A stretch of 64,000 nucleotides of DNA from an uncultured bacterium (GCA_949297305.1 CASFSG010000027.1:4924-68923); one strand, 5' to 3'. Positions 18,612-48,969 are shown, numbered from the stretch's first letter. Made by a program: numbers and translations. Notes: generated by a model from the letters alone, not told the origin.

Positions 18612-19458
18612 TTTTTAATAACTCATGATAAGAATCAATTCGACGATCGCGAAATACGCCCCATGAAATTCTCTCTTTATTTATCTCATCAAAATCAAAC
18701 TCATAGAGGCGATAACCTTCTTCTAGACGATTCATTTGCTCTACCACTTCGCCGTGCTGATTGGCGATAAAGGAATAGCCACCAAAGACCATCGATGAAT
18801 CTTTTGCCATCTCAATACCAACGCGATTACTGGCAATAACAGGAATCAAATTAGCGGAGGCATGACCTCTCATCGTATTTTGCCAATGAATCATCGAATC
18901 GCGTTCTAAAACCGGCTCGCTACCAATTGCTGTTGGATATACAATTAACTCAGCTCCTTTTAATGTTAAAATTCTAGCAACTTCGGGAAACCATTGATCC
19001 CAACAGATCCCTACACCAATTTTTCCATATTTAGTGTTAAAAACTTTATAACCTAAATCACCAGGAGTGAAATAGAATTTTTCTTCATAGCATTGTCCTG
19101 TTGGGATATGCATTTTGCGATATAGACCCAAAACGGTACCATCAGCATCAATCATCGCTAAAGAATTAAAATAATTAACTCCACTCTTTTCAAAAAACGA
19201 AATAGGCAAAACGACTTGATATTTTTTTGCTACTTCCTGAAAATGTTTAATTAAAGATGAATTTTTAAATGTTTCAGCTTTACTAAAATTATCATAGTCT
19301 TCAATTTGGCAAAAATATAAGTCAGAAAATAATTCTTGTAAAAGAATAATTTGAGCACCCGCGAGTTTTGCCTCTTCAATCATCTTATCAGCTTTTAAAA
19401 TATTATCTTCTTTTTTAGAGCTGATTTTCATCTGGGTGATTGCTACTTTGACTCTCAT
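18598..19458 (-). CDS. aguB: N-carbamoylputrescine amidase (nitrilase superfamily)
   Basis: LLQELF, YRKMHIP...YEEKFYFTPGD, GICWDQWFPE, YPTAIGSEP; adjacent to an agmatine deiminase domain. Confidence 0.93.
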   Translation of the reverse strand: MRVKVAITQMKISSKKEDNILKADKMIEEAKLAGAQIILLQELFSDLYFCQIEDYDNFSKAETFKNSSLIKHFQEVAKKYQVVLPISFFEKSGVNYFNSLAMIDADGTVLGLYRKMHIPTGQCYEEKFYFTPGDLGYKVFNTKYGKIGVGICWDQWFPEVARILTLKGAELIVYPTAIGSEPVLERDSMIHWQNTMRGHASANLIPVIASNRVGIEMAKDSSMVFGGYSFIANQHGEVVEQMNRLEEGYRLYEFDFDEINKERISWGVFRDRRIDSYHELLKNGEE

Positions 19459-22072
19459 CTATTTTTTCCTCCTTTAAAGGTATTTGCATAGTAATACAAT
19501 GGATGTTTCCACCGCCTAAAAGTATCTCGCGACTCTCAATTTGGATGACATCTTTATCAGGATATTGCTTTTTTATTTTTTTATAAGCAATTTCATCTTC
19601 TAAAACATTAAACTTAGGCACAATTACAAATTTTTCTCCTTGATAAAAATTAATGTAACTAGCCGCTAGGCGATTCCCTTCAATGCGTTCAATTGCACCA
19701 TAACGGTCGCTTTTAATGCCAGAAGATTCTTCTTTCGACATAAATAAGGGTTTGGGCAATGGTATTTTAATAATTTTAAAAGGATTGCCTAAAGCATCTG
19801 TTTCTTTTTTTAAGATGTTATAACAAGATAAAGAATAATTATATTGCGGATCCGCTTTATCCATGCACCACCCTAAAGCGATGACGCCTGGCCGCATAAA
19901 ACAAGCAATATTATCAACATGTTCATTTGTCTCATCTAAGTAAATACCATGTTTTAACCAAATAACTTTCGAAACATTTAAATAAATTTTCAAAGTTTCT
20001 TCAATTTCCTGTTTAGTTAAGGTAGGATTGCGACCCTTAGATAATAAACAAGCTTCAGTGACTAGACAAGTTCCTTGACCGTCGACATGAATACTACCGC
20101 CCTCTAAAACAAAATTATCGAGGTAATATCGATCGACATTAAAATATTTAGCAAGCGTCTTCTTTAACTGGTTATCTTCCTTATAATTCGAATACAAACC
20201 ATCAACATCGCCACCCCAAGCATTAAATCTAAAATCGATACATCGCAGCATGCCCTGTTTATTTTTTACAAAAATTGGTGAGGTATCGCGCGCCCAAGAA
20301 TCATCGTATTTAATTTTTATCGGAATAACATTAGGAATATTCTCATATTCAACAATAACTTTGTTATAGATGCTTGGATCAATACCAACATAAACTTTTT
20401 CATAATTTTTAATGGCCATAATAACATTTTTAAAGGCTTCACGAGCTGGGACGGCGTTATTTCGCCAGGTGTCTTTACGATATGGCAAAAAGATAATTGT
20501 TCCTTGATGCTTATCGCCTTCAAAGGGCATAAAATAATCATCGCCGCGCGGCGTAGTAATTTTCTTTAATAAATAATCATCTAAGCGATGACGATATAGG
20601 TGAAATTGTGGCCATTTCTCTTTATCGATAACCGACACATAATCAGTCCTTTTATATTGCGAAAGAATTGTACATTTGCTTTTTTTATACGCTAAAATGC
20701 GATTGACGAGTTCTTTAGTAAAAACTTCGCCTGGCACAATTAAAGGGATGCCCGGCGGATAAATCATCAATTGTTCTTTGCTAACTTCATTAATTGCTTC
20801 TTCTAAAGGCACTTTTTTACCAAAAGCGTGGTAGGCTAGACGCGGACGCATTAACATATAGGGAAAATCAATCCCAAATGTATGTTCAATCCTCGCGTTC
20901 GATTTCTTATAGTGTTTCTTAGAAATATCTTTCAAAGCCTTAATTAACGCTAGAATGTGTTTCTTTTTCGTGCCAATTGACAAAACGCACATCACAACAT
21001 ATGTTTCCGCTAATTCAACTTGAATGTTATACTCGCTTTTTAAAATTTTATATAATTCAAAACCATTAATGTCTAAGTGATCGATTGCAATAACTAATTT
21101 CGTTAAGTCATAATCAAAAGAGCCGTACTTAATAAAATGTTCTCTATCTACTGTTTTAAAACCTTTGATTTTATTGATTTGTTCACGCGCGAACAAAGAA
21201 TATTCTAATGTTCGGTTCATATATTCTTGGCCATGAAGAGCAACGAATTCACGCGCGGTATCTAAACTCGCTAATAAAAGTGTTGAGGGAGAAGTCGTAT
21301 TGATGATATTTAAAGTTTTTTGAATATCTTCTTTAAAGAAAATGCCTTCATTTAATAATAAAACGCTCGATTGGGTTAATGAGCCAGCAGTTTTATGGAA
21401 AGATACGCTCGCCATGTCCGCTCCCGCTTCCATCGCGCTTATTGGACCGTTTTTATTAAAATAGTAATGCGCACCATGAGCTTCATCAACTAAAACTGCC
21501 ATTTGACGTTTATGCGCTTCCTCAACCAAAGTTTTTAAATCTGTTACCGAACCAAAATAAGTTGGATTAATGATAAAAATTGCTTTTGCTGACGGATAGC
21601 GATTCATCGCTTTTATATATTCATCAACCGATGGTTGGTTAGCAATCTCAATTTCAGGATCAAGCTTAGGCATGATATAAATCGGTGTTGCCCCGCTAAG
21701 AACTAAAGAACTGACAATCGATTTATGCACATTCCTCGGTAGAATAATTTTATCGTTAGCCTTACAAGCAGTCATAATCATGGCAATAATGCCGCTAGTT
21801 GTGCCATTAATCAAAAAATAAGCACGATCAGCTTTAGCAAAATTTGCCATCAATCTAGATGCATCAAGCAAAACGCCAGTTGGTGATGCTAAATTATCTA
21901 AACCAATCGGAGCGTTCACATCCGCTTTAAAAACCATTTCTCCTAAAAAGGATTTTAATTTATTTGGAACACTGCCCATATGATGTCCAGGAACATCAAA
22001 AGGTGACACATCATCTAAGACATATTTTTTTAAGGCATCGAAATAAGGGGTTCTATGTTGTGATTTTTTCAT
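19415..22072 (-). CDS. Fusion protein: fold-type I Arg/Lys/Orn decarboxylase (aa ~1-485) plus agmatine deiminase (aa ~505-860)
   Basis: N-terminal half has FDVPGH, NGTTSG, PRNVHKS, VDEAHGAH, SFHKT (PLP Lys227) and YPPGIP. C-terminal half has MPFEGDKH, SWARD, LEGGSIHVDG, NEHVDN and GGGNIHCITMQ (catalytic Cys). One uninterrupted 885-codon ORF. Confidence 0.93.
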   Translation of the reverse strand: MKKSQHRTPYFDALKKYVLDDVSPFDVPGHHMGSVPNKLKSFLGEMVFKADVNAPIGLDNLASPTGVLLDASRLMANFAKADRAYFLINGTTSGIIAMIMTACKANDKIILPRNVHKSIVSSLVLSGATPIYIMPKLDPEIEIANQPSVDEYIKAMNRYPSAKAIFIINPTYFGSVTDLKTLVEEAHKRQMAVLVDEAHGAHYYFNKNGPISAMEAGADMASVSFHKTAGSLTQSSVLLLNEGIFFKEDIQKTLNIINTTSPSTLLLASLDTAREFVALHGQEYMNRTLEYSLFAREQINKIKGFKTVDREHFIKYGSFDYDLTKLVIAIDHLDINGFELYKILKSEYNIQVELAETYVVMCVLSIGTKKKHILALIKALKDISKKHYKKSNARIEHTFGIDFPYMLMRPRLAYHAFGKKVPLEEAINEVSKEQLMIYPPGIPLIVPGEVFTKELVNRILAYKKSKCTILSQYKRTDYVSVIDKEKWPQFHLYRHRLDDYLLKKITTPRGDDYFMPFEGDKHQGTIIFLPYRKDTWRNNAVPAREAFKNVIMAIKNYEKVYVGIDPSIYNKVIVEYENIPNVIPIKIKYDDSWARDTSPIFVKNKQGMLRCIDFRFNAWGGDVDGLYSNYKEDNQLKKTLAKYFNVDRYYLDNFVLEGGSIHVDGQGTCLVTEACLLSKGRNPTLTKQEIEETLKIYLNVSKVIWLKHGIYLDETNEHVDNIACFMRPGVIALGWCMDKADPQYNYSLSCYNILKKETDALGNPFKIIKIPLPKPLFMSKEESSGIKSDRYGAIERIEGNRLAASYINFYQGEKFVIVPKFNVLEDEIAYKKIKKQYPDKDVIQIESREILLGGGNIHCITMQIPLKEEKIDESQSSNHPDENQL

Positions 22073-23124: not shown

Positions 23125-24156
23125 ATGGAGAAAGAAATATTTTATATCACAGGGGCAACTGGTTGGGTTGGTTATAATGTCGTTAACGAACTTTTAAAAC
23201 GCAATAAAGAAATTGTAATTTTCGTTTTAGAAAACGATAAATTTAAAGATATTTTTAATGATCATTTAGATAAAATAACGGTGATTTACGGCGATATTAC
23301 AAATATCGATGATGTGAGACGCTTTTTGAATGCTAAAAAAGAAGATAAGATAATTCAAAAAGTAATTCATTCAGCTGGCATTGTAACCGTCGAACAAAAG
23401 TTCAATCAAAAAGTATACGATGTCAATGTCAAAGGTACCCAAAACATTGTTGACATTTCTTATGAAAACCATGTTGATCATTTCGTATATGTTTCGACAA
23501 CACATGTGTTTATTGATCGACCTAAAAATCATCAAATGGTGGAAGTAAAAGAATTCCAAAATAATCCTAAGGCCGGCTTATACGCCATCACAAAAGCCGA
23601 AGCTACTAGATATGTTTTAAAAAAGGCGGACGAAGGTTTAAATGCCTCGATCATTCATCCTAGTGCGATTATTGGGCCACGCGATTATATGGAAGGCTTA
23701 ATGACTTCAATGATTTTAATGTTTTTAAGAGGTAAGTTACCAGCAAGCGTTAATGGCGCGTACGACCTAGTAGATGTTCGCGATGTCGCACATGCTTTAA
23801 TTGCGGCTACTTATTTAGGTGAAAAAGGTGAAAATTATATCATCAGTGGCCACCAAAAAAAGATTACCGATTTAATTAATGAAGTCGCAAAATTAACTAA
23901 TAAAAAGAAAATAAGATTAACATTACCTTATTGGTTTGTTGCTAGTGTAACACCGATATATGAATGGTACTGTAAGAAAAAGCATCAAAAAGTTCTATAC
24001 ACCAAAAATGCCTTAATTGCCGTGAGAAATAATTCTAATTTTTCCCATCAAAAAGCCACTGATGTTTTAAATTATCATCCGCGACCACTCTTAGAGACTT
24101 TAAATGATGTCATCGATGATTTATATAAACGTTATCCAGAAATTAAAGACAAATAA
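23125..24156 (+). CDS. Extended SDR, NAD-dependent epimerase/dehydratase (3-beta-HSD/DFR-like)
   Basis: TGATGWVG, HSAG, NVKGT, catalytic YAITK, IIHPSAIIGP. Confidence 0.9.
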   Translation: MEKEIFYITGATGWVGYNVVNELLKRNKEIVIFVLENDKFKDIFNDHLDKITVIYGDITNIDDVRRFLNAKKEDKIIQKVIHSAGIVTVEQKFNQKVYDVNVKGTQNIVDISYENHVDHFVYVSTTHVFIDRPKNHQMVEVKEFQNNPKAGLYAITKAEATRYVLKKADEGLNASIIHPSAIIGPRDYMEGLMTSMILMFLRGKLPASVNGAYDLVDVRDVAHALIAATYLGEKGENYIISGHQKKITDLINEVAKLTNKKKIRLTLPYWFVASVTPIYEWYCKKKHQKVLYTKNALIAVRNNSNFSHQKATDVLNYHPRPLLETLNDVIDDLYKRYPEIKDK

Positions 24157-25311
24157 ATGCCAGCATATAAAAAGAAATTTTGGATTAATCTAAGTGTCTT
24201 AATTTTATTAATAATTTTATTAATTGTATTTTTGTTATTAAGACAAAATGTACAGGTTGCTGAATTTATTACAAACACCTTTGGCCGTTATTATCAATTT
24301 ATTGCTACTTATTTATTTTCTTATATTCCAATATCGCTTTTAGGCGTTGGTATTTTAGCTTTAATAATTTATTTAATTGTCTGGTTAGTGCATTATATTA
24401 GACATTTAAAAAGAAACGGCAAAAGGTTTAGCAGTCAATATTGGTTTAAATTAGGATATATTTCTTTATCACTAGGTTTAATTTATTTATTAACCGCTGG
24501 TATGGCGTATAATCGCCTACCACTAAATAGCCCCACTTATAGTGTTAAAGAAGTTGATGAAAGTGAATATATGGATATCGCTAACTATTTTTTAGATGAT
24601 TATAACGAGGTAACCAATAAATTAACTTTTAATGAAGATACTGGTGAAGTTATAAATCCATATTCTTTAAAAGAAATAAACGAAATATTAAAACGCGAGT
24701 TTTCTAAATTAGATCAAAACTATTTTTATCAAGCGATTCCTCAAATAAAAGAATTTCATCTCTTATCTTACTTTTATCGTGAATTGCAAATTATTGGTGT
24801 CACCTTCGTGCCACTAGCGGAAGCCAATCTAAATAATTTAATGACTAAAAGTGAATATCCTTTTACTGCCGCACATGAAATTGCCCACACCTTAGGTGTT
24901 ATGCGCGAAGAGGACGCTAATCTAGTTGCCTTCTATATTTGTTACACTAGTAACGACCCCTACTTTAGATATTCAGCCTATCAAAGAACCTTCTCTAGTC
25001 TTTATCCTTTTGTCTTAACGCGTCTAGGACTAAATGGTTATCAGGATTTTGTTAATAAATTAGATGAAAAGATCATTAATAATATGCGTTATGACCAACA
25101 ATATTGGTCTAATTATCATCTATTAGATGATGTAGGAAATTTCTTCAATAATATCTACTTATTTTTATCAGGGAATAAGGGCACTTCTTCTTATAACGAT
25201 AATCTTGATACTGATATTAATCAAAACCCGGACGGAACAATAAAATATACCATCGGTTCTTTTTCTAGGTATCAAAACTTATATTTATATTTTTATTTTA
25301 ATAATTTATAA
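24157..25311 (+). CDS. DUF3810-like membrane-anchored zincin protein
   Basis: Three N-terminal TM spans, EANLN, AAHEIAHTLG...REEDAN (HExxH plus E). Confidence 0.78.
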   Translation: MPAYKKKFWINLSVLILLIILLIVFLLLRQNVQVAEFITNTFGRYYQFIATYLFSYIPISLLGVGILALIIYLIVWLVHYIRHLKRNGKRFSSQYWFKLGYISLSLGLIYLLTAGMAYNRLPLNSPTYSVKEVDESEYMDIANYFLDDYNEVTNKLTFNEDTGEVINPYSLKEINEILKREFSKLDQNYFYQAIPQIKEFHLLSYFYRELQIIGVTFVPLAEANLNNLMTKSEYPFTAAHEIAHTLGVMREEDANLVAFYICYTSNDPYFRYSAYQRTFSSLYPFVLTRLGLNGYQDFVNKLDEKIINNMRYDQQYWSNYHLLDDVGNFFNNIYLFLSGNKGTSSYNDNLDTDINQNPDGTIKYTIGSFSRYQNLYLYFYFNNL

Positions 25312-26109
25312 ATCTTCAACGACGAATCTTTGTGATTCTTCAAAAGGGGTTGGAAAGATAATCTTATCTTCTATTTCATAATATTCTAATGAAATTGTAT
25401 ATGAGCTTTCGATATCAACATAATATTTTGTTTGGCCTTCGATGATGACATCTCGCTCATATATTTCAAAAAAGGAGAAAGAGAATTCAAAATTATTTGC
25501 AATGATAAAATCTAAAGGAATTAAAAACTCTTCGTTATAATGAAAGGTGTTAAAAAATCTCTCTGCTACTCGTATTTTATATTCTTGATAAGCGATTTCT
25601 TTATAAGTATCAACGAGATATTTATCGTCTAACGCTTCTTCAACACTCAATTCTTGGACTATCAAATAGTTTTGTTTAAATAGCGATAAATCATCGATAT
25701 TACCATCAAAAGGATTACTATTGCTTATTTTTTGACCAAAGCAGATAACGGCAGATAATGGTGTTAGTCCTTCTTCATTAGCAAAAGCCGTATTACTAAA
25801 ATTATAATATTCTTCACTTCTTAATCCGTAAGAAATATCGCAAATTAGACCACCAGATTCTTTTATATTTTGATTTTCATGCGGGGCTAAAAAACCGATT
25901 AACACATTAGTAGAAGAATTTCCGCCGCCTCGAGGATCGGTATAATCGATAATGTGATTAATTTGGAATTTATCATAGATAAAATAATATTCGGTTCTTA
26001 AATTTGGATCATAAGGAAAAGGATTAAAAAAATCACAAGATGATAAAGCAAGAACACTTGGAAAAATCAAGGCTATAGTATTTACTTTTTTAATTAATTT
26101 ATTGGCCAT
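25306..26109 (-). CDS. Uncharacterised lipoprotein A (island)
   Basis: Lipobox LALSSC after a basic and hydrophobic signal; acidic/aromatic body; overlaps the upstream ORF by 11 nt. Confidence 0.75.
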   Translation of the reverse strand: MANKLIKKVNTIALIFPSVLALSSCDFFNPFPYDPNLRTEYYFIYDKFQINHIIDYTDPRGGGNSSTNVLIGFLAPHENQNIKESGGLICDISYGLRSEEYYNFSNTAFANEEGLTPLSAVICFGQKISNSNPFDGNIDDLSLFKQNYLIVQELSVEEALDDKYLVDTYKEIAYQEYKIRVAERFFNTFHYNEEFLIPLDFIIANNFEFSFSFFEIYERDVIIEGQTKYYVDIESSYTISLEYYEIEDKIIFPTPFEESQRFVVEDL

Positions 26110-28717
26110 AATTAAACATCCCTTTCGCTGTGATTTTATGAATGGAAATTCTTCCTTTATTTACATTACCGATTGGCTCGGTTTCAGCATATATTCTAAA
26201 TTTGTGTGTTGTTTCATCGATAAATCTGGCGTTTAAATGATTGGGATTTGTTCTATCGGTAGAAAGAACACAATCGGCAAGTAAATCAAATGAAGTAACC
26301 CAATCACCCACAAATTCATCATAATACTGAATATAAGCACTACTATCGGTTGATGTAAAATATTCAGAATCGCTCCAAAACGAAATATCAATATCAATTT
26401 CTCTTACAATGTCATCACCAAAATCAAATTCTAAATAAGCTAATCCTGCGCCCTCTCTTCTTGGTGATAAATTTATACATTCGTTTTGTATAAAACCAGC
26501 TCGAAGCCTCTTAGTAGAAACGGTGTATTCATCGAACAAAACCACATCTTCATTGATTTCTGCACTTGGATATCCATCATAAAATTCGGTCATTTCTGGA
26601 GTAATATCAACATTTATTTGAGGTATATATAAATCAACAAAATTTGAATAATATGGGCCAGTTTCTATTGAATCTCTTTCATTATAACCAGCAATCGCAA
26701 TGCTTACACGGCTAAATTCAGTTGCTAAACTCTTGATAATCGACCAAGTGGTTTCTGGTATTTTGTATGTGATTACACCATTTTCATCTGGTGTAAAATT
26801 TGTTATTAAATAAGAATCAATAAGTGTATAATTTTTAAACAAAGCTAACTTAAACTTATTCAATGGATTCTTTGATGAGCCATTTTCATTCCATTGTATT
26901 GTAGGAGAGGAATAAAAATCATAGTAACTGGTTATTGTTAGAGGACCAGGCCCAATTTTTGTTTTATTAAGTAAATCCCCTAGACCACCATAAAAACGAT
27001 AATCAGATTCGTATAAACTATCGATAAAATCAGAAAATGTATGTACGCCACTTGTTGTTAATAAATTCCAAACAATTTCATCGGTATATACATCTCCAAA
27101 ATCAAATTCTTTATTATAGAAATTCAATAGAAAAGTTGTGATAGCGTTTTCTTGCGTTTCACTAAATTCATGTCCACCATCTTTTATTTTTGGTCCATCT
27201 CCTTCTTCTTGACTTTGAGAATTTTCCTCGACATAGAAATTTAACGAATCATTATATAATGTGTTAAAGTTATCGAAACAAGTGCCAGAAATTAAATCAA
27301 AATATTCTTGATAAACCGCTAAAGGATAAAAATAGCCCCATCCTTCGGTCCATGCAATTCGCGTTGCTTTCTCCATACCATATGGAACATCATTCCATCC
27401 TAGATATTCCGCTAAATCTGCGCTACTACTATGCCTTACGCCGCCATTAATTAAATCTGTTAATTTTATTGAATAAATACCTAAATAATATTGCAAAAAA
27501 TGTGTATATTCATGAATAGCATTAAGCCAGTCGCCACAAATTTCAAAATCATATAGGCCATAATACATGTATGCAAAAGTAAGGTTTAATCCGCCGTCTC
27601 CATAATATGTATTATTAAGATCGTCTGAATCTGCTGGATATATGGCCATAAATCTCTCTGGCAAATTACTGCTTGTGATATTTTCTTTTTTATAATAGAA
27701 GCTTTGACCAAGGCTTAACGCAGCAGCAAGAGAAAAAGCACCATCAATCGCGCTATAGCCTTGATTTAAATTATAATCAATAACTATGTTTGTTGTGTAA
27801 GAGCGCCCTTCCTCTGCTAGAAGTAATCCACTTGTAATATAATAGCTTGGGGATTCAAAGAAATTCGCACTTAAAAATTTGCTAACAGTATTTACAGAAT
27901 ATGTTTCGTTTTCAGGATAAACAGCTACGTAAAAATAATCGGGTAAATATTCGTAAGGCACAAATTCTGCATAATAAAAACCATAAGGCATAGTTTCTGT
28001 TGTAAGAATAGGAGTGTCTTTTAAACAATCGTCTCCTTCTTTAAAAATTTTTACTGTAAATCCGTCTAAATATATATGTTTTTGTGCGTTTGGATCAAAT
28101 ACACTTATTTGTCCACCAATAGATACAATCTCATTTCTAATACCCATAGGGCTGATGCCTTGATTAGTAGAATTATCCACATAACTTGTTTCGGTTCTAA
28201 CATTTCTCATCATAAAAGACTCGAATAAATCGGTTTTATAGTCTTCTTGTATTTTTCCTAAAAGAATGCATTTATCCAACCATTTTTCAAATACATCCAA
28301 ATCTGAAACATAAGAAAATTCGGTTATTCCTAAATTAGAATAAATAAACAAATCAATTTTGCTACAATAATATTCATCTAAAAACACCGATAAATTTAGA
28401 CGGGAATAGTCTTCATTTATAAGGATAGAAACATTAAGGTTGTTCGTATTGAGTATAGATATATCAACATCGTCTAAGTTATAAGTTTTGTAAGAATATG
28501 TCGTTATAACTTTTTCATCAAAATCAAAAGAAAAATTATATTCATTTTCTATAATTAACGATTTATGAACTTTCTTTGGTAGAGTTTTTATTTCAATTAT
28601 GTTGTTTTCTTCATTTAATGCTTCAACTGGTTTGCTTATTTTTTGTTGACCATTAATGCCACACATTAAAAAAGCAACAATCATCGTAAGTGGAAATATT
28701 TTTTTAATTTTCATCAT
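26099..28717 (-). CDS. Large secreted multidomain protein, putative gluzincin metallopeptidase
   Basis: Signal peptide MKIKKIFPLTMIVAFLM..., AIHEYTHF followed by AWTEGWG, and beta-rich domains on both sides of the catalytic region; 872 aa. Confidence 0.7.
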   Translation of the reverse strand: MMKIKKIFPLTMIVAFLMCGINGQQKISKPVEALNEENNIIEIKTLPKKVHKSLIIENEYNFSFDFDEKVITTYSYKTYNLDDVDISILNTNNLNVSILINEDYSRLNLSVFLDEYYCSKIDLFIYSNLGITEFSYVSDLDVFEKWLDKCILLGKIQEDYKTDLFESFMMRNVRTETSYVDNSTNQGISPMGIRNEIVSIGGQISVFDPNAQKHIYLDGFTVKIFKEGDDCLKDTPILTTETMPYGFYYAEFVPYEYLPDYFYVAVYPENETYSVNTVSKFLSANFFESPSYYITSGLLLAEEGRSYTTNIVIDYNLNQGYSAIDGAFSLAAALSLGQSFYYKKENITSSNLPERFMAIYPADSDDLNNTYYGDGGLNLTFAYMYYGLYDFEICGDWLNAIHEYTHFLQYYLGIYSIKLTDLINGGVRHSSSADLAEYLGWNDVPYGMEKATRIAWTEGWGYFYPLAVYQEYFDLISGTCFDNFNTLYNDSLNFYVEENSQSQEEGDGPKIKDGGHEFSETQENAITTFLLNFYNKEFDFGDVYTDEIVWNLLTTSGVHTFSDFIDSLYESDYRFYGGLGDLLNKTKIGPGPLTITSYYDFYSSPTIQWNENGSSKNPLNKFKLALFKNYTLIDSYLITNFTPDENGVITYKIPETTWSIIKSLATEFSRVSIAIAGYNERDSIETGPYYSNFVDLYIPQINVDITPEMTEFYDGYPSAEINEDVVLFDEYTVSTKRLRAGFIQNECINLSPRREGAGLAYLEFDFGDDIVREIDIDISFWSDSEYFTSTDSSAYIQYYDEFVGDWVTSFDLLADCVLSTDRTNPNHLNARFIDETTHKFRIYAETEPIGNVNKGRISIHKITAKGMFNYGQ

Positions 28718-28846
28718 TTCTTCTACCTCTTTGATATTATTTTAAAATGTGGCTATTGTTATATTCAACATTTTTTATTTTTTTTATTTTTTGTATATTT
28801 TTTAATTCTTGCTTGCAAAAAAATTATCAAACTTTAAAATGAAAAT

Positions 28847-29578
28847 ATGAGAATAAACCTATACCTTTCTACAAAGCAACTTATTTCCTTACCAATTTTA
28901 TTTTTATTAACCGCATGTCATAAACCAACTATTGATGTTTATGATGAGCCATATTATTTTACCTATCCTGCGTCACAAATTGGTCACATCATCGATGTCA
29001 TGCAAAATGAAGAAGATATAGAATATCAAGGTTTTGAAGTACTAAATGAATGTAATGTTTTAATTGGGACAAAACTTAATTATGAAACAAAATATAATGA
29101 GGTTGAAGGTGCTTTTCCAATCGAAGTTTCTTTTGGAACAATGAATGCAACATATGACGCTTATTTAGAATTGCCTTTTTATGGTCCAAATGAGATTTTT
29201 AAACGCGCTTATATTGCTGCTAAAAAGGAATTCCCTGGTTCTACCATAAAATACCACGCATTAGAAGAATTCACCTACGATGCTTTTTCTAGCGAAGAAT
29301 ATCGCGTAGAAACAATTGTTGAAACACTATCTGTTGAATCAAAATTAGTTAAAAGGATTACTAATCTTTATCAACACACTTCGGTAAGTTATATTCCTGC
29401 TATATATTTTTTAAATTTCGACGAAATTCAAATATCATTTTGTTTGGAAACTAATCGACGAACTTATGAACTAGTCACTTCTGCCCCAATTAAATATATT
29501 TATAATCAAATCACAGACACTTTATATTTTGAGCCTGTGCTTGATTATCAAATTAAAAATTCTAATGAATTAAATTAA
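28847..29578 (+). CDS. Uncharacterised lipoprotein B (island), paralog of 25306..26109
   Basis: Lipobox LLTAC; shares YYFxYxxxQIxHIID and NVLIG with lipoprotein A. Confidence 0.75.
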   Translation: MRINLYLSTKQLISLPILFLLTACHKPTIDVYDEPYYFTYPASQIGHIIDVMQNEEDIEYQGFEVLNECNVLIGTKLNYETKYNEVEGAFPIEVSFGTMNATYDAYLELPFYGPNEIFKRAYIAAKKEFPGSTIKYHALEEFTYDAFSSEEYRVETIVETLSVESKLVKRITNLYQHTSVSYIPAIYFLNFDEIQISFCLETNRRTYELVTSAPIKYIYNQITDTLYFEPVLDYQIKNSNELN

Positions 29579-29583
29579 ATATC

Positions 29584-31038
29584 TCAATCAAATTTATTCG
29601 TCATATAGACATATTTAATCGCGCCTTCGATGCTTTGTTCTTTAGCTTCTAGGCCATATTTATCAACTTCTTTTTTATCTCTTACTTCGTGAGTTAAACA
29701 ACAAGGCCCACCAATACAACCATTCGTGCAAATCATCCCTTCGATGAAGTTATAAGGCTTTTCAGCGCCTTGCGATTTCACCAATAATTGACGGCACATA
29801 TCTAAACCATCACCAATTCCAGCGTTTAATTCAAAGTTGATATTTTGTTCTTTTAACGCTTCATTCACCGCATCATGGAGACCTCCACTACGCGCGAAGA
29901 TACGGCCAAAATAAGAAGCGTTATCTAACGGAGACTCTTCTAATTTTGAAGCGTCAATATCGCGACTATCGATTAAAGCCTGCAATTCTTCAAATGTTAA
30001 AACAGAATCGATGTATTGAGAAACTTTCGGACGTTTTATTTCTTGTTTTTTAGCAACGCATGGTCCAATAAATACAATTTTAGATGTTGGATCAACGGTT
30101 TTAATATATTGGGCAATCGTCGCCATCGGAGAAAGGTTTTCGGAAATATTCTCTTTTAATTTAGGAAATTTCTTTTCCACAAAACTAACAAAGGCTGGAC
30201 AACAACTTGATAGTAAAAAACCTTTTTCAGATAATTCTTTCGCTTCTTTATAAGCGACCATATCAGCCCCTAAAGCCGCTTCGACGACATTGTGGAAGCC
30301 TAATACTTCAATCGCTTTAATAATTTGCCCTAATGTTGCATATTTAAATTGTGAAGAAATCGAAGGGGCAATAATCGCGTATAAATGATATTTTCTAGAG
30401 AAATCGCTATCTTTAATCATATCGATGACATCGGTGATATAAGACACATCCATAATCGCACCGAAAGGACATTGATAGACACACTGACCGCATTGGATAC
30501 ATTTTTCGTCGTCGATTTCGGCAGCGAAGTTAGCGTCCGGTTTAATCGCTCCCATCTTGCAAGAGGCTTCGCAAGGGCGGGTATAATTAGTAATCGCATT
30601 ATATTGACAGGCTTTCGCACATAAACCGCAGTTGATACATTTGGTTTTATCAATATGGGCGGTACGAGTTTGTTGATCGAAAGTAATGGCTTTTCTAGGA
30701 CAAGCTTTTTCACAGCGATGAGCGATACAACCGCGACAATTGCGAGTGACTTCATAACCGCCTAAAGGACATTCGTCACAAGCAATTTTTAAAACTTGCA
30801 CGACATTATTGCGTGAGCGATCACCACCTAAAGCCATTCGCATTCTTTCTTGAACGATTGCTCTTTCTTTATAAACGCAGCAGCGAAATGTCGACTTTGG
30901 TCCAGGTGAAATAATTTCAGGAATTTTATTATAATCTTCTAGCAAGGTACCATTAAAATAGGCTTTCGCAACTTCTTTAAGGACACTGTATTTTAATTCT
31001 TGAACCCGGGTATCAAATTTAGCTTTAATCTCTTCCAT
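29584..31038 (-). CDS. Monomeric ferredoxin-type [FeFe]-hydrogenase (group B, HfsD/HydA2-like)
   Basis: H-cluster motifs SSCCPAF, GPCVAKKQE and EGMICTNGCIGG; N-terminal CCVYKER/CDEC and three CxxCxxCxxxC ferredoxin motifs. Confidence 0.93.
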   Translation of the reverse strand: MEEIKAKFDTRVQELKYSVLKEVAKAYFNGTLLEDYNKIPEIISPGPKSTFRCCVYKERAIVQERMRMALGGDRSRNNVVQVLKIACDECPLGGYEVTRNCRGCIAHRCEKACPRKAITFDQQTRTAHIDKTKCINCGLCAKACQYNAITNYTRPCEASCKMGAIKPDANFAAEIDDEKCIQCGQCVYQCPFGAIMDVSYITDVIDMIKDSDFSRKYHLYAIIAPSISSQFKYATLGQIIKAIEVLGFHNVVEAALGADMVAYKEAKELSEKGFLLSSCCPAFVSFVEKKFPKLKENISENLSPMATIAQYIKTVDPTSKIVFIGPCVAKKQEIKRPKVSQYIDSVLTFEELQALIDSRDIDASKLEESPLDNASYFGRIFARSGGLHDAVNEALKEQNINFELNAGIGDGLDMCRQLLVKSQGAEKPYNFIEGMICTNGCIGGPCCLTHEVRDKKEVDKYGLEAKEQSIEGAIKYVYMTNKFD

Positions 31039-31055
31039 AATAAAAACTCCAATCT

Positions 31056-32237
31056 TTAAAAATAACTTACTTTGATGGACTTATTCATCTTTTTAAGAGC
31101 TTTTGAGAGTTCATCCACCAGTTGCATTTTAGTATTAAAATTAATCGCTAAGCCTTCTTGCTGATGAGCGGGATTAATCGCGCAGCCAACAAAGAAATTT
31201 ATATCGGTGGCTTCTTCAAATAGTAAGCGAGCAATTTGTGAAGCGCCATCTTGTTTAAATGACCAGGTAAAATAATCTTTGTTATCACCAAAAACATTAT
31301 TAGCGTATTGTAAGACTTTATTAATTGTAATAACACCTTCAGTAACTAAATCTACCCCTTCAATATGAGCGGTAGGAGGTACTTCAGGATCAATATAATC
31401 TAAAGGAAATTCTAATTCTTTTTTCAAATATCTTGAAACGACACTTGAAGTTGTTCCGCCACAAACGATGTGTTTACCTTCTTTAGCGAAAAATAAAGAT
31501 AACATTTTACTATCGTCTTCGCGATTAGAAGCTGGACCAATCATTAAATTTACTTGTTTGCGGGGACGAATTTTAATCACCGCGCAGGTCGCGTCATCGC
31601 CCGGCTTGTTTTCATATAGGTCATTGACATGACTAACGATATAGGTGGCAAGGGATTTTGCCGAATATTTTTTGTCAAATAATCCTTCAGCATAATCGAT
31701 GACATCCATTAGTTCCCAACCAAAGTTCAGCGTCGCACCAATCCCAGCATGAATTACCCCATCACTCATCAAAAAGAAACTATCGTTTTCTAATAAATAT
31801 GTCGAGGCATATGAAATTGTTTTACCATCGATTATTTGGCTTCGCCAATCAAGAGGCGAATATTTTCCATTTCTTAATAAAAATGGTTGTGGATTATCAT
31901 AATTATAAACGACCGCTCGACGACTATTTGTTACATGAATAATTGTAAAAGTCGAATAAGCGACATTCCGCACTTTACAAACAGGCAAAGTCTCCATGAT
32001 AGTTCGAATGCTTTCTTCTAAGGGAATATCATGTGAAATTAAAGTTGATAAAATTTCGCTTGTTAAGGTGCTTAAAATATTAGCCTTAACCCCACTACCA
32101 AGACCATCGGCTAAAACGAGAGTAACCGTATTCTTGTTGGGATCAGATACTACTTGGACACAATCGCCACAAAGTTCTTCTTTGTCGTGATTAATTGATA
32201 AATAACCGATCTCAGTAATGAGATTACTCACCATCAT
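31056..32237 (-). CDS. SpoIIE/PP2C-family Ser/Thr phosphatase (HfsC-like)
   Basis: LCGD, LADGLGSGVKANILS, YSTFT, MSDGV, PGDDAT, plus the C-terminal HIVCGGTT...LVTEG domain. Confidence 0.92.
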   Translation of the reverse strand: MMVSNLITEIGYLSINHDKEELCGDCVQVVSDPNKNTVTLVLADGLGSGVKANILSTLTSEILSTLISHDIPLEESIRTIMETLPVCKVRNVAYSTFTIIHVTNSRRAVVYNYDNPQPFLLRNGKYSPLDWRSQIIDGKTISYASTYLLENDSFFLMSDGVIHAGIGATLNFGWELMDVIDYAEGLFDKKYSAKSLATYIVSHVNDLYENKPGDDATCAVIKIRPRKQVNLMIGPASNREDDSKMLSLFFAKEGKHIVCGGTTSSVVSRYLKKELEFPLDYIDPEVPPTAHIEGVDLVTEGVITINKVLQYANNVFGDNKDYFTWSFKQDGASQIARLLFEEATDINFFVGCAINPAHQQEGLAINFNTKMQLVDELSKALKKMNKSIKVSYF

Positions 32238-33912
32238 TTTTAATCGTATCCTTTAATGAAGAAAGAGCAATTTTGGTTTCCGCTGCGCTTTCACCAAGCA
32301 AAGAGGCAATTTCTTGAACAACGCGCATATTCTTTTCAATAACCGCATCAGCAATATCCACTGATTTATTGACAAATTCTTCTTTCTTTAAGACTTTCTT
32401 TTGCTCATCACTAATATCGCGGAAAATAGAAATAATAACATGATATTTTTCATCAAAGACAACCGTAGCTTCAACATATTTATCATATTCTGATAGATAT
32501 TCGCGACGATTGTGAATTTGTTCACCTGCTAAAGCCATCGCAAACATCCCTGGATCGAGAATTGTAGAGACATTTTTACCGATGACTTCGCGCGCATGCG
32601 TCACACCAACAATTTTACGCATCGCTGGATTAATTAATTGAATATTTAAATTTTCATCTAAGGCCATTAAACCATTTGGCACATTGAAGATAACTTTATC
32701 GGAGAAACTTTGAGCTTTTTGCATCAAGAAAGGTAGACACATTTCTTTAACGGCTTTACCTTCTAAAATGGCAATTGCTTTGTCGCGGCAAGAATCATAG
32801 CCACAAGAACCACAATTTAATTCATCTTGTTTAGTGTATTTACCCATTTCCAACAATTCTTTTTGAATATCGATATCGCTGGGGCGAGCTTTCGAAACAC
32901 CAGTGGAACTAAATTTAGTAACAATATCCTTGTAGCCATTATTTTTCACATTAAAATCTTCTTTGCCAGCTACTTTATGAACTTTTAAATATCCAGTTAA
33001 TAATGATCTAGCATTACCCTCGATGGCCGGACCATTGATGCAAGAACCAGCGCAGGCACTCATTTCAATAAAACAACGATGAACTTTGCCTTGACGAATA
33101 TCTTCTAAAGCCTCCATAACATTTGCCATTCCATCAATTGCTAAGTAGTCGTAATCAGGATTAGACTTTTCCATCGTGTTTAAAACACCACCGGTCGTCG
33201 GGAATAGGCGAGCTTTAGATTTTGTTAATTCTTTGGTTCCACCATCTTCAGTAAGTTCAAGACGTTCGCCTTTTAGCCATTCATTTAACTCGATGAAAGT
33301 CAAAACGGCGTCGACAAAATGATTTTTGTCACTATCAACTTCGTCTTTTTTAGCAATGCAAGGACCAATAAATACAACATAAGCATCGGGATATCTTTCT
33401 TTAATATCCTTACCGTGCGCTAGCATTGGTGACAAAACATCCGCTAAACAAGGGATTAAATCGGGATAATGCTTTTGAATGAGGAGGTTAATACTATGGC
33501 AACAAGTTGAAATAATCACATCGCGGTCATTGCTATTGACCATTTCATCATAAACTTTTTTAACTATCGTCGCCCCGATAGCGGTTTCTTCTACATCGTA
33601 AAAGCCTAATTTGATGAGATTTTCTCTTAGTTCATCAAACGAAACATTTAAGTAAGCCGAAACATAACTCGGGGCGAGCGATACAATCACTTTTTTGCCA
33701 CTACGAAGAAGAGTTTTTACTTTATTGACATCGTTGCGAATTTCTTTACAAGATTGTGGGCAAAGCAAGAAACAATGACCGCAAAGGACACAATCATCAT
33801 GAATAATACTTGCTTGATTGTCACTAAAAGAAATTGATTTAACTGGGCAACCGCGAATGCATTTATAGCAATTGCGACAATCGTTTTTGCGACTTTCTAA
33901 AGCGTAAATCAT
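32224..33912 (-). CDS. PAS-domain sensory [FeFe]-hydrogenase-like protein (group C, HydS/HfsB-like)
   Basis: Two N-terminal 4Fe-4S motifs; altered H-cluster motifs STCCHS, GPCIAKKDE and EMSACAGSCING; FeS motif NCGSCGYDSC...C; C-terminal PAS (VPNGLMALDENLNIQLINPAM) and coiled coil. Confidence 0.92.
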   Translation of the reverse strand: MIYALESRKNDCRNCYKCIRGCPVKSISFSDNQASIIHDDCVLCGHCFLLCPQSCKEIRNDVNKVKTLLRSGKKVIVSLAPSYVSAYLNVSFDELRENLIKLGFYDVEETAIGATIVKKVYDEMVNSNDRDVIISTCCHSINLLIQKHYPDLIPCLADVLSPMLAHGKDIKERYPDAYVVFIGPCIAKKDEVDSDKNHFVDAVLTFIELNEWLKGERLELTEDGGTKELTKSKARLFPTTGGVLNTMEKSNPDYDYLAIDGMANVMEALEDIRQGKVHRCFIEMSACAGSCINGPAIEGNARSLLTGYLKVHKVAGKEDFNVKNNGYKDIVTKFSSTGVSKARPSDIDIQKELLEMGKYTKQDELNCGSCGYDSCRDKAIAILEGKAVKEMCLPFLMQKAQSFSDKVIFNVPNGLMALDENLNIQLINPAMRKIVGVTHAREVIGKNVSTILDPGMFAMALAGEQIHNRREYLSEYDKYVEATVVFDEKYHVIISIFRDISDEQKKVLKKEEFVNKSVDIADAVIEKNMRVVQEIASLLGESAAETKIALSSLKDTIKNDGE

Positions 33913-48857: not shown

Positions 48858-48868
48858 CTCTAATTAAA

Positions 48869-48949
48869 AACCGTCACACATGTCTTCGTTACTTAAGGCT
48901 GCTATATTCCTATCCTGACCTGGTTCATAAGTCCAACATTGTAACGGCT
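48869..48949 (-). ncRNA. ffs: Signal recognition particle RNA, small (4.5S-like) type
   Basis: Minus strand GAACCAGGUCAGG-AUA-GGAA-UAU-AGCAGC helix-8 signature; terminal stem GCCGUUACA/UGUGACGGU followed by a U-tract; TATAAT at 48955-48960. Confidence 0.92.
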
Positions 48950-48969
48950 TTATTATTATAATTTATTTC

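Follow-up and report, generated by a model that had tools for sequence, protein, structure and literature searches.

In Tannerella forsythia, six secreted peptidases of disparate classes, the KLIKK peptidases, carry a common C-terminal domain (PMC9890683; PMC4404884). Each of their genes is found beside an overlapping or nearly abutting gene encoding a lipoprotein inhibitor, named potempin; the potempins have only 4-14% mutual identity, and non-pathogenic relatives do not possess these loci (PMC9890683). Here, we describe a three-gene block (positions 25306-29578) of a 64,000-nucleotide stretch of DNA from an uncultured bacterium (GCA_949297305.1 CASFSG010000027.1:4924-68923), the whole of this stretch being referred to as the window. 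The host appears to be a Bacillota/Mollicutes-like, low-GC gut bacterium, its nearest named relatives being Mollicutes-like. The block encodes an 872-residue secreted-type protein together with two lipoproteins of 267 and 243 residues, and we read it as an accessory module in which a new putative metalloprotease family is associated with cognate lipoprotein partners, most likely inhibitors. This is the reading that we favor, with a confidence slightly below an even chance, and it builds on the gene order and overlap, the conserved motifs, the sharing of a C-terminal module, the linkage to lipoprotein genes, the accessory status of the block and a recombination tract.

The gene of the 872-residue protein, putatively a secreted zinc metalloprotease with several domains and belonging to a HExxH family not described before, occupies 26099..28717 on the minus strand. 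Its 3' end overlaps by 11 nucleotides the gene of the 267-residue lipoprotein (25306..26109, minus strand), whereas the gene of the 243-residue lipoprotein (28847..29578, plus strand) is divergent. These open reading frame (ORF) calls confirm the gene layout given by the original prediction, an earlier reading of this DNA by a model. Both lipoproteins have canonical lipoprotein signals, ending with LALSSC (lipobox LSSC) in the 267-residue protein and with LLTAC (lipobox LTAC) in the 243-residue one. Since they can be aligned over their full length with 25% identity, they are considered as paralogs, and the only notable repeat at the block, an inverted repeat of 46 nucleotides (25945-25990 / 28951-28996), is a trace of this paralogy. 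Lipoprotein-like ORFs are only about four in the 64-kb window, and two of them flank the protease gene. The divergent intergenic region (28718..28846, no strand assigned) is 129 bp long with 17% GC. Hexamers resembling promoters are present on both of its strands, and a putative ribosome-binding site (GAGG) precedes the protease gene; all of these are consensus matches only, the promoter and terminator scans being no better than the shuffle expectation.

A comparable coupling was found among the relatives of the 872-residue protein. An exhaustive HMMER search returned 385 relatives at E <1e-3, and a word-indexed homolog search returned the same-species copy only. Among the best 150 relatives, about 40 possess the HExxH domain and about 100 share only the last ~165 residues (module-only proteins). 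Eighty-eight loci encoding relatives were fetched, in part through a metagenome-locus query with a 12-sequence alignment; the genes were called crudely, the focal proteins were classed by family hidden Markov models (HMMs) and clustered at 60% identity, and a partner was counted when a same-strand lipoprotein gene was located within 60 nucleotides, the other genes of the same loci serving as controls. Such a partner was observed for 11 of the 19 HExxH-family clusters (Fisher P 6e-12 versus controls) and for 10 of the 25 module-only clusters (Fisher P 3e-9), compared with 3 of 227 control genes. The co-occurrence part of the lipoprotein coupling postulated by the original prediction is thus in agreement with these counts. 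The hypothesis that the lipoprotein genes are unrelated chance neighbours in a lipoprotein-rich genome is strongly disfavoured, and we regard it as highly improbable. The window lipoproteins have indeed no detectable homology to the partners in relatives, as expected from chance adjacency, but the enrichment of about 30- to 45-fold over the same-locus controls, the overlap of the two genes and the mutual paralogy of both flanking lipoproteins all argue against it.

The spacing between partner and focal genes is typically -29 to +23 nucleotides, many of them overlapping or being 10-12 nucleotides away, and the partner is located upstream in 12 cases and downstream in 13. The partner lipoproteins, mostly 135-261 residues long including the signal peptide, fall into many unrelated sequence families, whose distribution follows that of the catalytic family and not that of the C-terminal module: a six-member lipoprotein family (lp6) is found beside HExxH proteins with the module and without it (L118, L152), and other families accompany the C39-like proteins. 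These features bear on the main rival explanation, in which the lipoproteins would be docking or maturation partners involved in the surface retention, the folding or the activation of the enzyme, like PrtM for PrtP. Genetic linkage fits this explanation equally well, and the 872-residue protein has no recognisable wall or membrane anchor besides its N-terminal signal. The position of one lipoprotein gene, divergent as prtM is to prtP, and the Mollicutes-like nearest named relatives of the host are also in its favor, the cell surface of Mollicutes being dominated by lipoproteins. However, none of the partner lipoproteins examined contains a PPIase (peptidyl-prolyl isomerase), a PrsA or any other known domain; the ten partners of relatives that were tested gave no Pfam match, and thus no PPIase, PrsA or rotamase domain. 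Moreover, folding helpers are usually conserved, whereas the partners here show an extreme diversity, each protease family having its specific ones, and their families do not follow the C-terminal module, the part by which docking would most naturally be expected. We therefore consider docking or maturation as rather unlikely, and favor an inhibitory role of the lipoproteins.

Other neighbours were observed at some of these loci. S8 subtilases carrying the C-terminal module (L093-L096, 3194-8677) have lipoprotein genes on both sides, the upstream lipoprotein being 210-237 residues long and the downstream one 752 residues long, with weak immunoglobulin (Ig)-like matches and an overlap of 14 nucleotides. 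In many HExxH-less module proteins (L099-L111, L115-L117, L125, L133, L136), a 200-370-residue protein with an N-terminal XRE-type helix-turn-helix (HTH) domain is encoded upstream in place of the lipoprotein, 9-20 nucleotides from the module gene or overlapping it; its C-terminal part is apparently hydrophobic, and it may be a dedicated membrane-bound regulator. The HExxH-family relative P0003 (L083/L084, 8789-10970) has no lipoprotein gene beside it and is followed by two paralogous proteins of ~360 residues, without Pfam match and apparently membrane proteins, which may be an alternative partner type. Finally, an IS110-family transposase adjoins the protease-lipoprotein pair of P0007 (L088, 4783-5943), which hints that some members of the family travel with mobile elements.

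To describe the architecture of the 872-residue protein, an AlphaFold2 model was built on 43 relatives (predicted local distance difference test, pLDDT, 82.5; predicted template-modelling score, pTM, 0.77). All features given below are on the minus strand. The N-terminal signal (MMKIKKIFPLTMIVAFLMCGINGQQ; 28643..28717), read from the sequence, is K-rich and hydrophobic without a canonical lipobox, and corresponds to a Sec type I signal or to an uncleaved anchor; in the model, a signal helix (residues 7-20) precedes a disordered stretch (residues 20-56), and the signal peptides of the relatives are Cys-free. Next comes a beta-sandwich with two helices (residues 53-181; 28175..28561), predicted to be folded and conserved, since a family-specific HMM matches most of the full-length relatives, and which is a possible pro-domain. 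The modelled strands then delineate a transthyretin-like beta-sandwich (residues 198-314; 27776..28126), with Pfam matches in the relatives (TTR-52 in 8 of 43, CarboxypepD_reg in 1 of 43). It is followed by a mainly helical domain, the putative catalytic one (residues 323-585; 26963..27751), and by a fibronectin type III (Fn3)/Ig-like beta-sandwich (residues 606-696; 26630..26902), supported by the modelled strands and a family HMM, without Pfam match. The C-terminal discoidin/CBM32-like module (residues 701-869; 26111..26617) forms a separate beta-sandwich. The transthyretin-like and Fn3-like segments and the distinct C-terminal module announced by the original prediction were all recovered in this model.

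The 43 aligned family members are 19-29% identical to the window protein, and the sole invariant columns of the 43-sequence alignment are H402, E403, H406, H429 and E458. Invariance restricted to these five residues at such a low identity is indicative of a conserved metal or catalytic site. In the model, short strands and a long backing helix come before the helix (residues 397-412) that carries the HEYTH motif (residues 402-406; 27500..27514), and after it comes another long helix (residues 447-471), which bears Glu458 of the TEGWG motif (27344..27346), 52 residues past H406. His429 (27431..27433), absent from the original prediction, is equally invariant and is a candidate third zinc ligand or catalytic residue, so that both E458, the gluzincin-type candidate, and H429 could putatively provide the third ligand. 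The topology of the modelled domain, with a backing helix, strands, an active-site helix and a Glu helix, could be that of a zincin, without reaching significance. When 32 catalytic-domain fragments were compared with Pfam, scattered sub-threshold matches to zinc peptidases were obtained, including Zn_peptidase, Reprolysin_5, DUF6782 and M60 (one member, E 0.83). Two further zinc peptidases, snapalysin and, with Foldseek, anthrax lethal factor, also appeared below significance, and the fact that these weak matches are zinc peptidases speaks for the protease reading.

An alternative would be a non-catalytic surface adhesin or glycan-binding protein, whose HExxH motif would be structural or a relic and whose neighbouring lipoproteins would be other surface components of an adhesion locus. 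Four of the five folded domains are beta-sandwiches typical of adhesins, the C-terminal module is CBM32/discoidin-like and no zincin fold match was obtained, all of which would suit such a protein. On the other hand, the five putative active-site residues are strictly invariant at only about 20-25% overall identity, and bona fide peptidase domains occupy the corresponding position in the same module architecture. We hold this alternative to be improbable and maintain that the 872-residue protein is a putative metallopeptidase. Regarding its family, searches of Pfam, NCBIfam, PADLOC, PHROGs and PDB sequences with all three proteins of the block gave nothing significant, and no source annotation was found in ten relative clusters looked up. 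The absence of any family or structure match and of any source name in these clusters agrees with the earlier description of the protein as undescribed.

The C-terminal module provides an independent view of this protein. Among the 99 module-only proteins, Pfam detected Peptidase_C39_2 in 28, Peptidase_C10 in 9, Peptidase_S8 in 7, DUF6973 in 3 and C92 in 1, and a trypsin-like protein with the module is encoded at a metagenome locus (L143). The original prediction had proposed to look for homologs having this module on other catalytic domains, and they were found on C39-like, C10, S8 and trypsin-like proteins. As judged from these sequences, the module (~165 residues) is a common accessory domain of predicted secreted peptidases of at least five catalytic types. 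Since the same module is fused to several peptidase classes, the HExxH domain would occupy the peptidase slot, which indirectly supports a peptidase role for it. Foldseek related the module to CBM32, CBM51, CBM86 and neuropilin b1b2 at E values of 1e-4 to 1e-3, with a target-normalised template-modelling score (TM-score) of 0.2-0.5, and F5_F8_type_C (PF00754) was matched weakly by 3 of the 28 sequences of the module compared with it, the best match (E 0.0025) not reaching the threshold. A profile of the C-terminal alignment searched against PDB sequences retrieved only a lectin (E 0.42), which was rejected as non-significant. Judged from this fold resemblance only, the most likely role of the module is to target the enzyme to a substrate or surface that bears glycans.

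The block is accessory. It is also found in two other assemblies, where the three proteins are 92-98% (L001) and 99-100% (L003) identical to those of the window, and it is absent from a related species (L002), in which the hydrogenase-like gene, whose product is 86% identical, and the DUF3810 gene are directly convergent with an overlap of 7 nucleotides. In the window, these flanking genes are convergent as well, DUF3810 (plus strand) overlapping the block by 6 nucleotides and the Fe-hydrogenase-like gene (minus strand) being 5 nucleotides off. The DUF3810 membrane protein (24157-25311, plus strand) has its own HExxH motif (AAHEIAHTLG); because its gene is present in L002 without the block, we consider it as core and not as a part of the block. 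No direct or inverted flanking repeats, tRNA genes or integrase were found around the block as insertion signatures, so the convergent core flanks and the lack of integrase and repeats described by the original prediction were borne out by the neighbouring genes and the repeat scan.

Comparison of the assemblies revealed a tract of ~6 kb (23700..29750, no strand assigned) that runs from the 3' end of an epimerase gene through DUF3810 and the three genes of the block to the 3' tip of the hydrogenase-like gene. Relative to L003, the tract (~23,700-29,750) is 97-100% identical, with a synonymous divergence (dS) of 0-0.05, whereas its flanks are 80-90% identical (dS 0.75-1.26); relative to L001, the tract is 84-98% identical and the flanks 99-100%. 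The tract is sharply bounded, with breakpoints inside the epimerase and hydrogenase-like genes. This identity mosaic indicates that the tract was probably exchanged recently by homologous recombination between lineages ~15% apart.

The base composition of the block is also particular, with 30.0% GC against 33.7% in the window, a CpG observed/expected ratio of 1.11 against 1.36, both in the lowest 2% of equal-sized windows, and a CpG density of 24.8 per kb against 38.4 per kb. This is a modest deviation, given that the adjacent 22-25 kb is low in GC too and that the tetranucleotide distance of the block ranks only 7 of 120, which is not extreme. The CpG depletion previously noticed by eye is therefore correct though not dramatic, and the block, absent in L002, is neither core nor uniform in composition. 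As for the proposed horizontal acquisition, the accessory status and the exchange seen in the mosaic tract stand, whereas the compositional signal is small.

The original prediction had also left room for an interbacterial effector/immunity module, in which the large protein would be a toxin and the two lipoproteins would be immunity proteins for the producer and its kin. An accessory, recombined and low-GC block, duplicated and faster evolving partner genes, and a diverse partner repertoire across the relatives would be expected from such a module. However, the protein has an ordinary Sec signal and no type VII secretion system (T7SS), LXG, WXG, Rhs or contact-dependent inhibition (CDI)-type delivery domain, PADLOC and PHROGs gave no match, no secretion-apparatus genes are found nearby, and a variable catalytic domain preceding a conserved C-terminal module is the reverse of the polymorphic-toxin architecture. 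Nothing points specifically to effector and immunity functions over a protease with an inhibitor or partner, and we give this option little probability.

Several results weigh against the reading of the block as a metalloprotease with lipoprotein inhibitors. Regarding the enzyme, Foldseek of the isolated catalytic-domain model (pLDDT 74.9) against the PDB gave nothing significant (best E 4.8), anthrax lethal factor appearing only at E ~8 with a probability of 0.05, and the whole chain retrieved no peptidase in the top 50 PDB matches, these being beta-sandwich or carbohydrate-binding module (CBM) proteins only. The 872-residue protein has no match to a curated peptidase family at the gathering thresholds of Pfam and NCBIfam, and the profile of the catalytic alignment retrieved from PDB sequences only snapalysin (E 0.79), which was rejected as non-significant. 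A zincin fold would agree with the modelled topology, but the structure comparison does not establish it, and the protein is judged to be a putative metallopeptidase of an undescribed family. The gluzincin arrangement proposed earlier thus holds for the HExxH motif and the downstream Glu, both invariant in the 43 relatives, but not for the fold.

Regarding the lipoproteins, 8 of the 19 HExxH clusters are without an adjacent lipoprotein gene, and homology of the window lipoproteins to the partners of the relatives is not demonstrable. The two window lipoproteins have no Pfam or PDB match, a homolog search with the 267-residue one returned same-species copies only, and the lp6 HMM gave no significant match to either. 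With hhalign, an apparent homology to lp6 (probability 74%) fell to 23% after removal of the signal peptides and is not claimed; for the mature window and partner lipoproteins the score was 29.5, with a maximum of 18.7 in 30 shuffles. The mature window lipoproteins are about 219-243 residues long, approximately twice the size of potempins. The ratio of nonsynonymous to synonymous substitution rates (dN/dS) between the window and L001 is highest for the lipoproteins (0.18-0.20), which speaks for their role as partners, compared with 0.10 for the protease and 0.00-0.10 for the flanking genes; it stays, however, well below 1 throughout, which corresponds to purifying selection with no sign of positive selection. 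Lastly, the tract could in principle be a chimera of metagenome assembly, but three independent assemblies show complementary patterns.

Taken together, these data allow us to propose a mechanism, in which the proteolysis, the role of the C-terminal module and the binding or inhibition by the lipoproteins are inferred. The multidomain enzyme, composed in order of the signal, the N-terminal domain, the transthyretin-like sandwich, the helical HExxH domain, the Fn3-like sandwich and the discoidin/CBM32-like module, would be exported by the Sec pathway. Zinc would be bound by H402 and H406 together with E458 or H429, E403 acting as the general base. The beta-sandwich modules, especially the discoidin-like C-terminal one, could bring the enzyme to a glycan-bearing substrate or surface, where the HExxH domain would cleave protein substrates. 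Both paralogous lipoproteins would be anchored on the outer face of the cytoplasmic membrane and bind the enzyme there. As specific inhibitors or guards, they could restrain it at the surface of the producer and protect its own surface proteins, like potempins. We favor this inhibitor or guard model because of the tight gene coupling, the extreme diversity of the partners, their tracking of the catalytic family and the parallel with the KLIKK/potempin system.

Other genes of the window deserve to be mentioned. A fusion protein of 885 residues (19415-22072, minus strand) combines an Orn/Lys/Arg decarboxylase (OKR_DC_1) with an agmatine deiminase (PAD_porph); a CN_hydrolase gene comes next in the syntenic L001, and together they look like a compact arginine-to-putrescine route. 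Next to the block, a cluster (29584-33912, minus strand) encodes an Fe-hydrogenase-like protein with ferredoxin domains (484 residues), a SpoIIE/PP2C phosphatase (393 residues) and an Fe-hydrogenase-like protein with a faint PAS match (562 residues). It looks like a sensory [FeFe]-hydrogenase regulatory module, and its first two genes are syntenic in about 70 loci of Bacillota metagenome-assembled genomes. The sole Rfam match in the window is a bacterial small signal recognition particle (SRP) RNA (48858-48955, minus strand; RF00169, 60 bits), and no tRNA genes were found in the 64 kb.

Beyond this block, gut Bacillota/Mollicutes-like bacteria could possess a widespread and unnamed counterpart of the KLIKK/potempin system, with at least five peptidase types having a common discoidin-like module, each accompanied by a fast-diverging lipoprotein inhibitor, the pairs being exchanged by recombination. 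We advance this broader hypothesis tentatively, and estimate that it is somewhat more likely to be wrong than right. If it is true, the partner lipoproteins would constitute several new families of protein protease inhibitors, and the HExxH proteins, which have no annotation in the window protein or in the clusters checked, would form a metallopeptidase family that has no place in current classifications, although gut and anaerobic metagenomes contain several hundred of its members. The C-terminal targeting module would then be the common mark of an entire set of peptidases secreted by uncultured gut Bacilli, which are poorly known. So far, the only worked example of peptidases of many classes with a common C-terminal domain and their own lipoprotein inhibitors comes from one oral Bacteroidota pathogen; if monoderm gut bacteria had arrived at this logic with unrelated parts, this would point to convergent evolution and to a general solution to the secretion of aggressive proteases without harming the own surface. 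These systems could also be a source of new specific protease inhibitors and of candidate host-interaction factors involved in mucin, immunoglobulin or matrix degradation.

Several described systems share part of this design. In serralysin-type metalloproteases with adjacent inhibitors (AprA/AprI, Inh, SmaPI) and in protealysin/emfourin, an exported cognate inhibitor guards the envelope of the producer. The block resembles them by a secreted zinc metalloprotease gene located beside a small gene for an exported partner, inhibition being putative here, but the inhibitors of these systems are soluble and periplasmic, their proteases belong to M10B or M4, and no sequence or Pfam relationship was found with the proteins of the block. 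In Gram-positive bacteria, the genes of staphopains (scpAB, sspBC) and SpeB are each followed by a co-oriented gene for a specific inhibitor, staphostatin or Spi. The C-terminal module of the window protein is also present in C10 (streptopain-type) and other cysteine peptidases, whereas staphostatins and Spi are cytoplasmic and without signal peptides, the partners here being lipoproteins. In Lactococcus, the envelope subtilase PrtP is matured by a divergently encoded lipoprotein, PrtM, which is a PrsA-like PPIase. The arrangement of a large secreted protease with a divergent lipoprotein gene is similar in the block, and S8 subtilases with the module are also flanked by lipoproteins (L093), but no partner here contains a rotamase/PrsA domain. 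As for the protein itself, the M60-like peptidases of Clostridium perfringens are glycoprotein-targeting metalloproteases with CBM32 or discoidin modules, and the window protein has in common with them an HExxH domain associated with beta-sandwiches of galactose-binding-domain-like fold. It differs from them by the absence of a significant M60 match, and its module remains below the Pfam threshold of F5_F8_type_C.

The closest likeness is to the KLIKK/potempin system; when the literature was searched for systems of the potempin type in Firmicutes, no paper was retrieved. In both cases, (i) secreted peptidases of disparate classes have one common C-terminal domain, the domain itself being different here and the architecture only analogous; (ii) the peptidase gene is linked with a gene for a small lipoprotein, either by an overlap, as in the block with its 11 nucleotides, or at a distance of a few bp; and (iii) the lipoproteins have diverged among themselves to an extreme degree, and the loci, which are accessory, are not found in close relatives. 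In contrast, the host here is a monoderm Bacillota/Mollicutes-like bacterium and its protein is without a type IX secretion system (T9SS) domain; to our knowledge, the T9SS is not found in this group. The window protein ends with KGMFNYGQ, the family consensus being NKGRISIG plus a few residues, instead of a KLIKK tail; its module is ~165 residues long and discoidin-like, and its catalytic domain is an unclassified HExxH domain versus M10 or M43. The lipoproteins are about 135-261 residues long versus 98-132 for potempins, whose fold is an oligonucleotide/oligosaccharide-binding (OB) fold or an eight-stranded beta-barrel; their genes are located upstream or downstream, and anchoring to the cytoplasmic membrane is predicted. 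Because the components are unrelated, we consider that the relationship with the KLIKK/potempin system is an analogy of design rather than a family membership.

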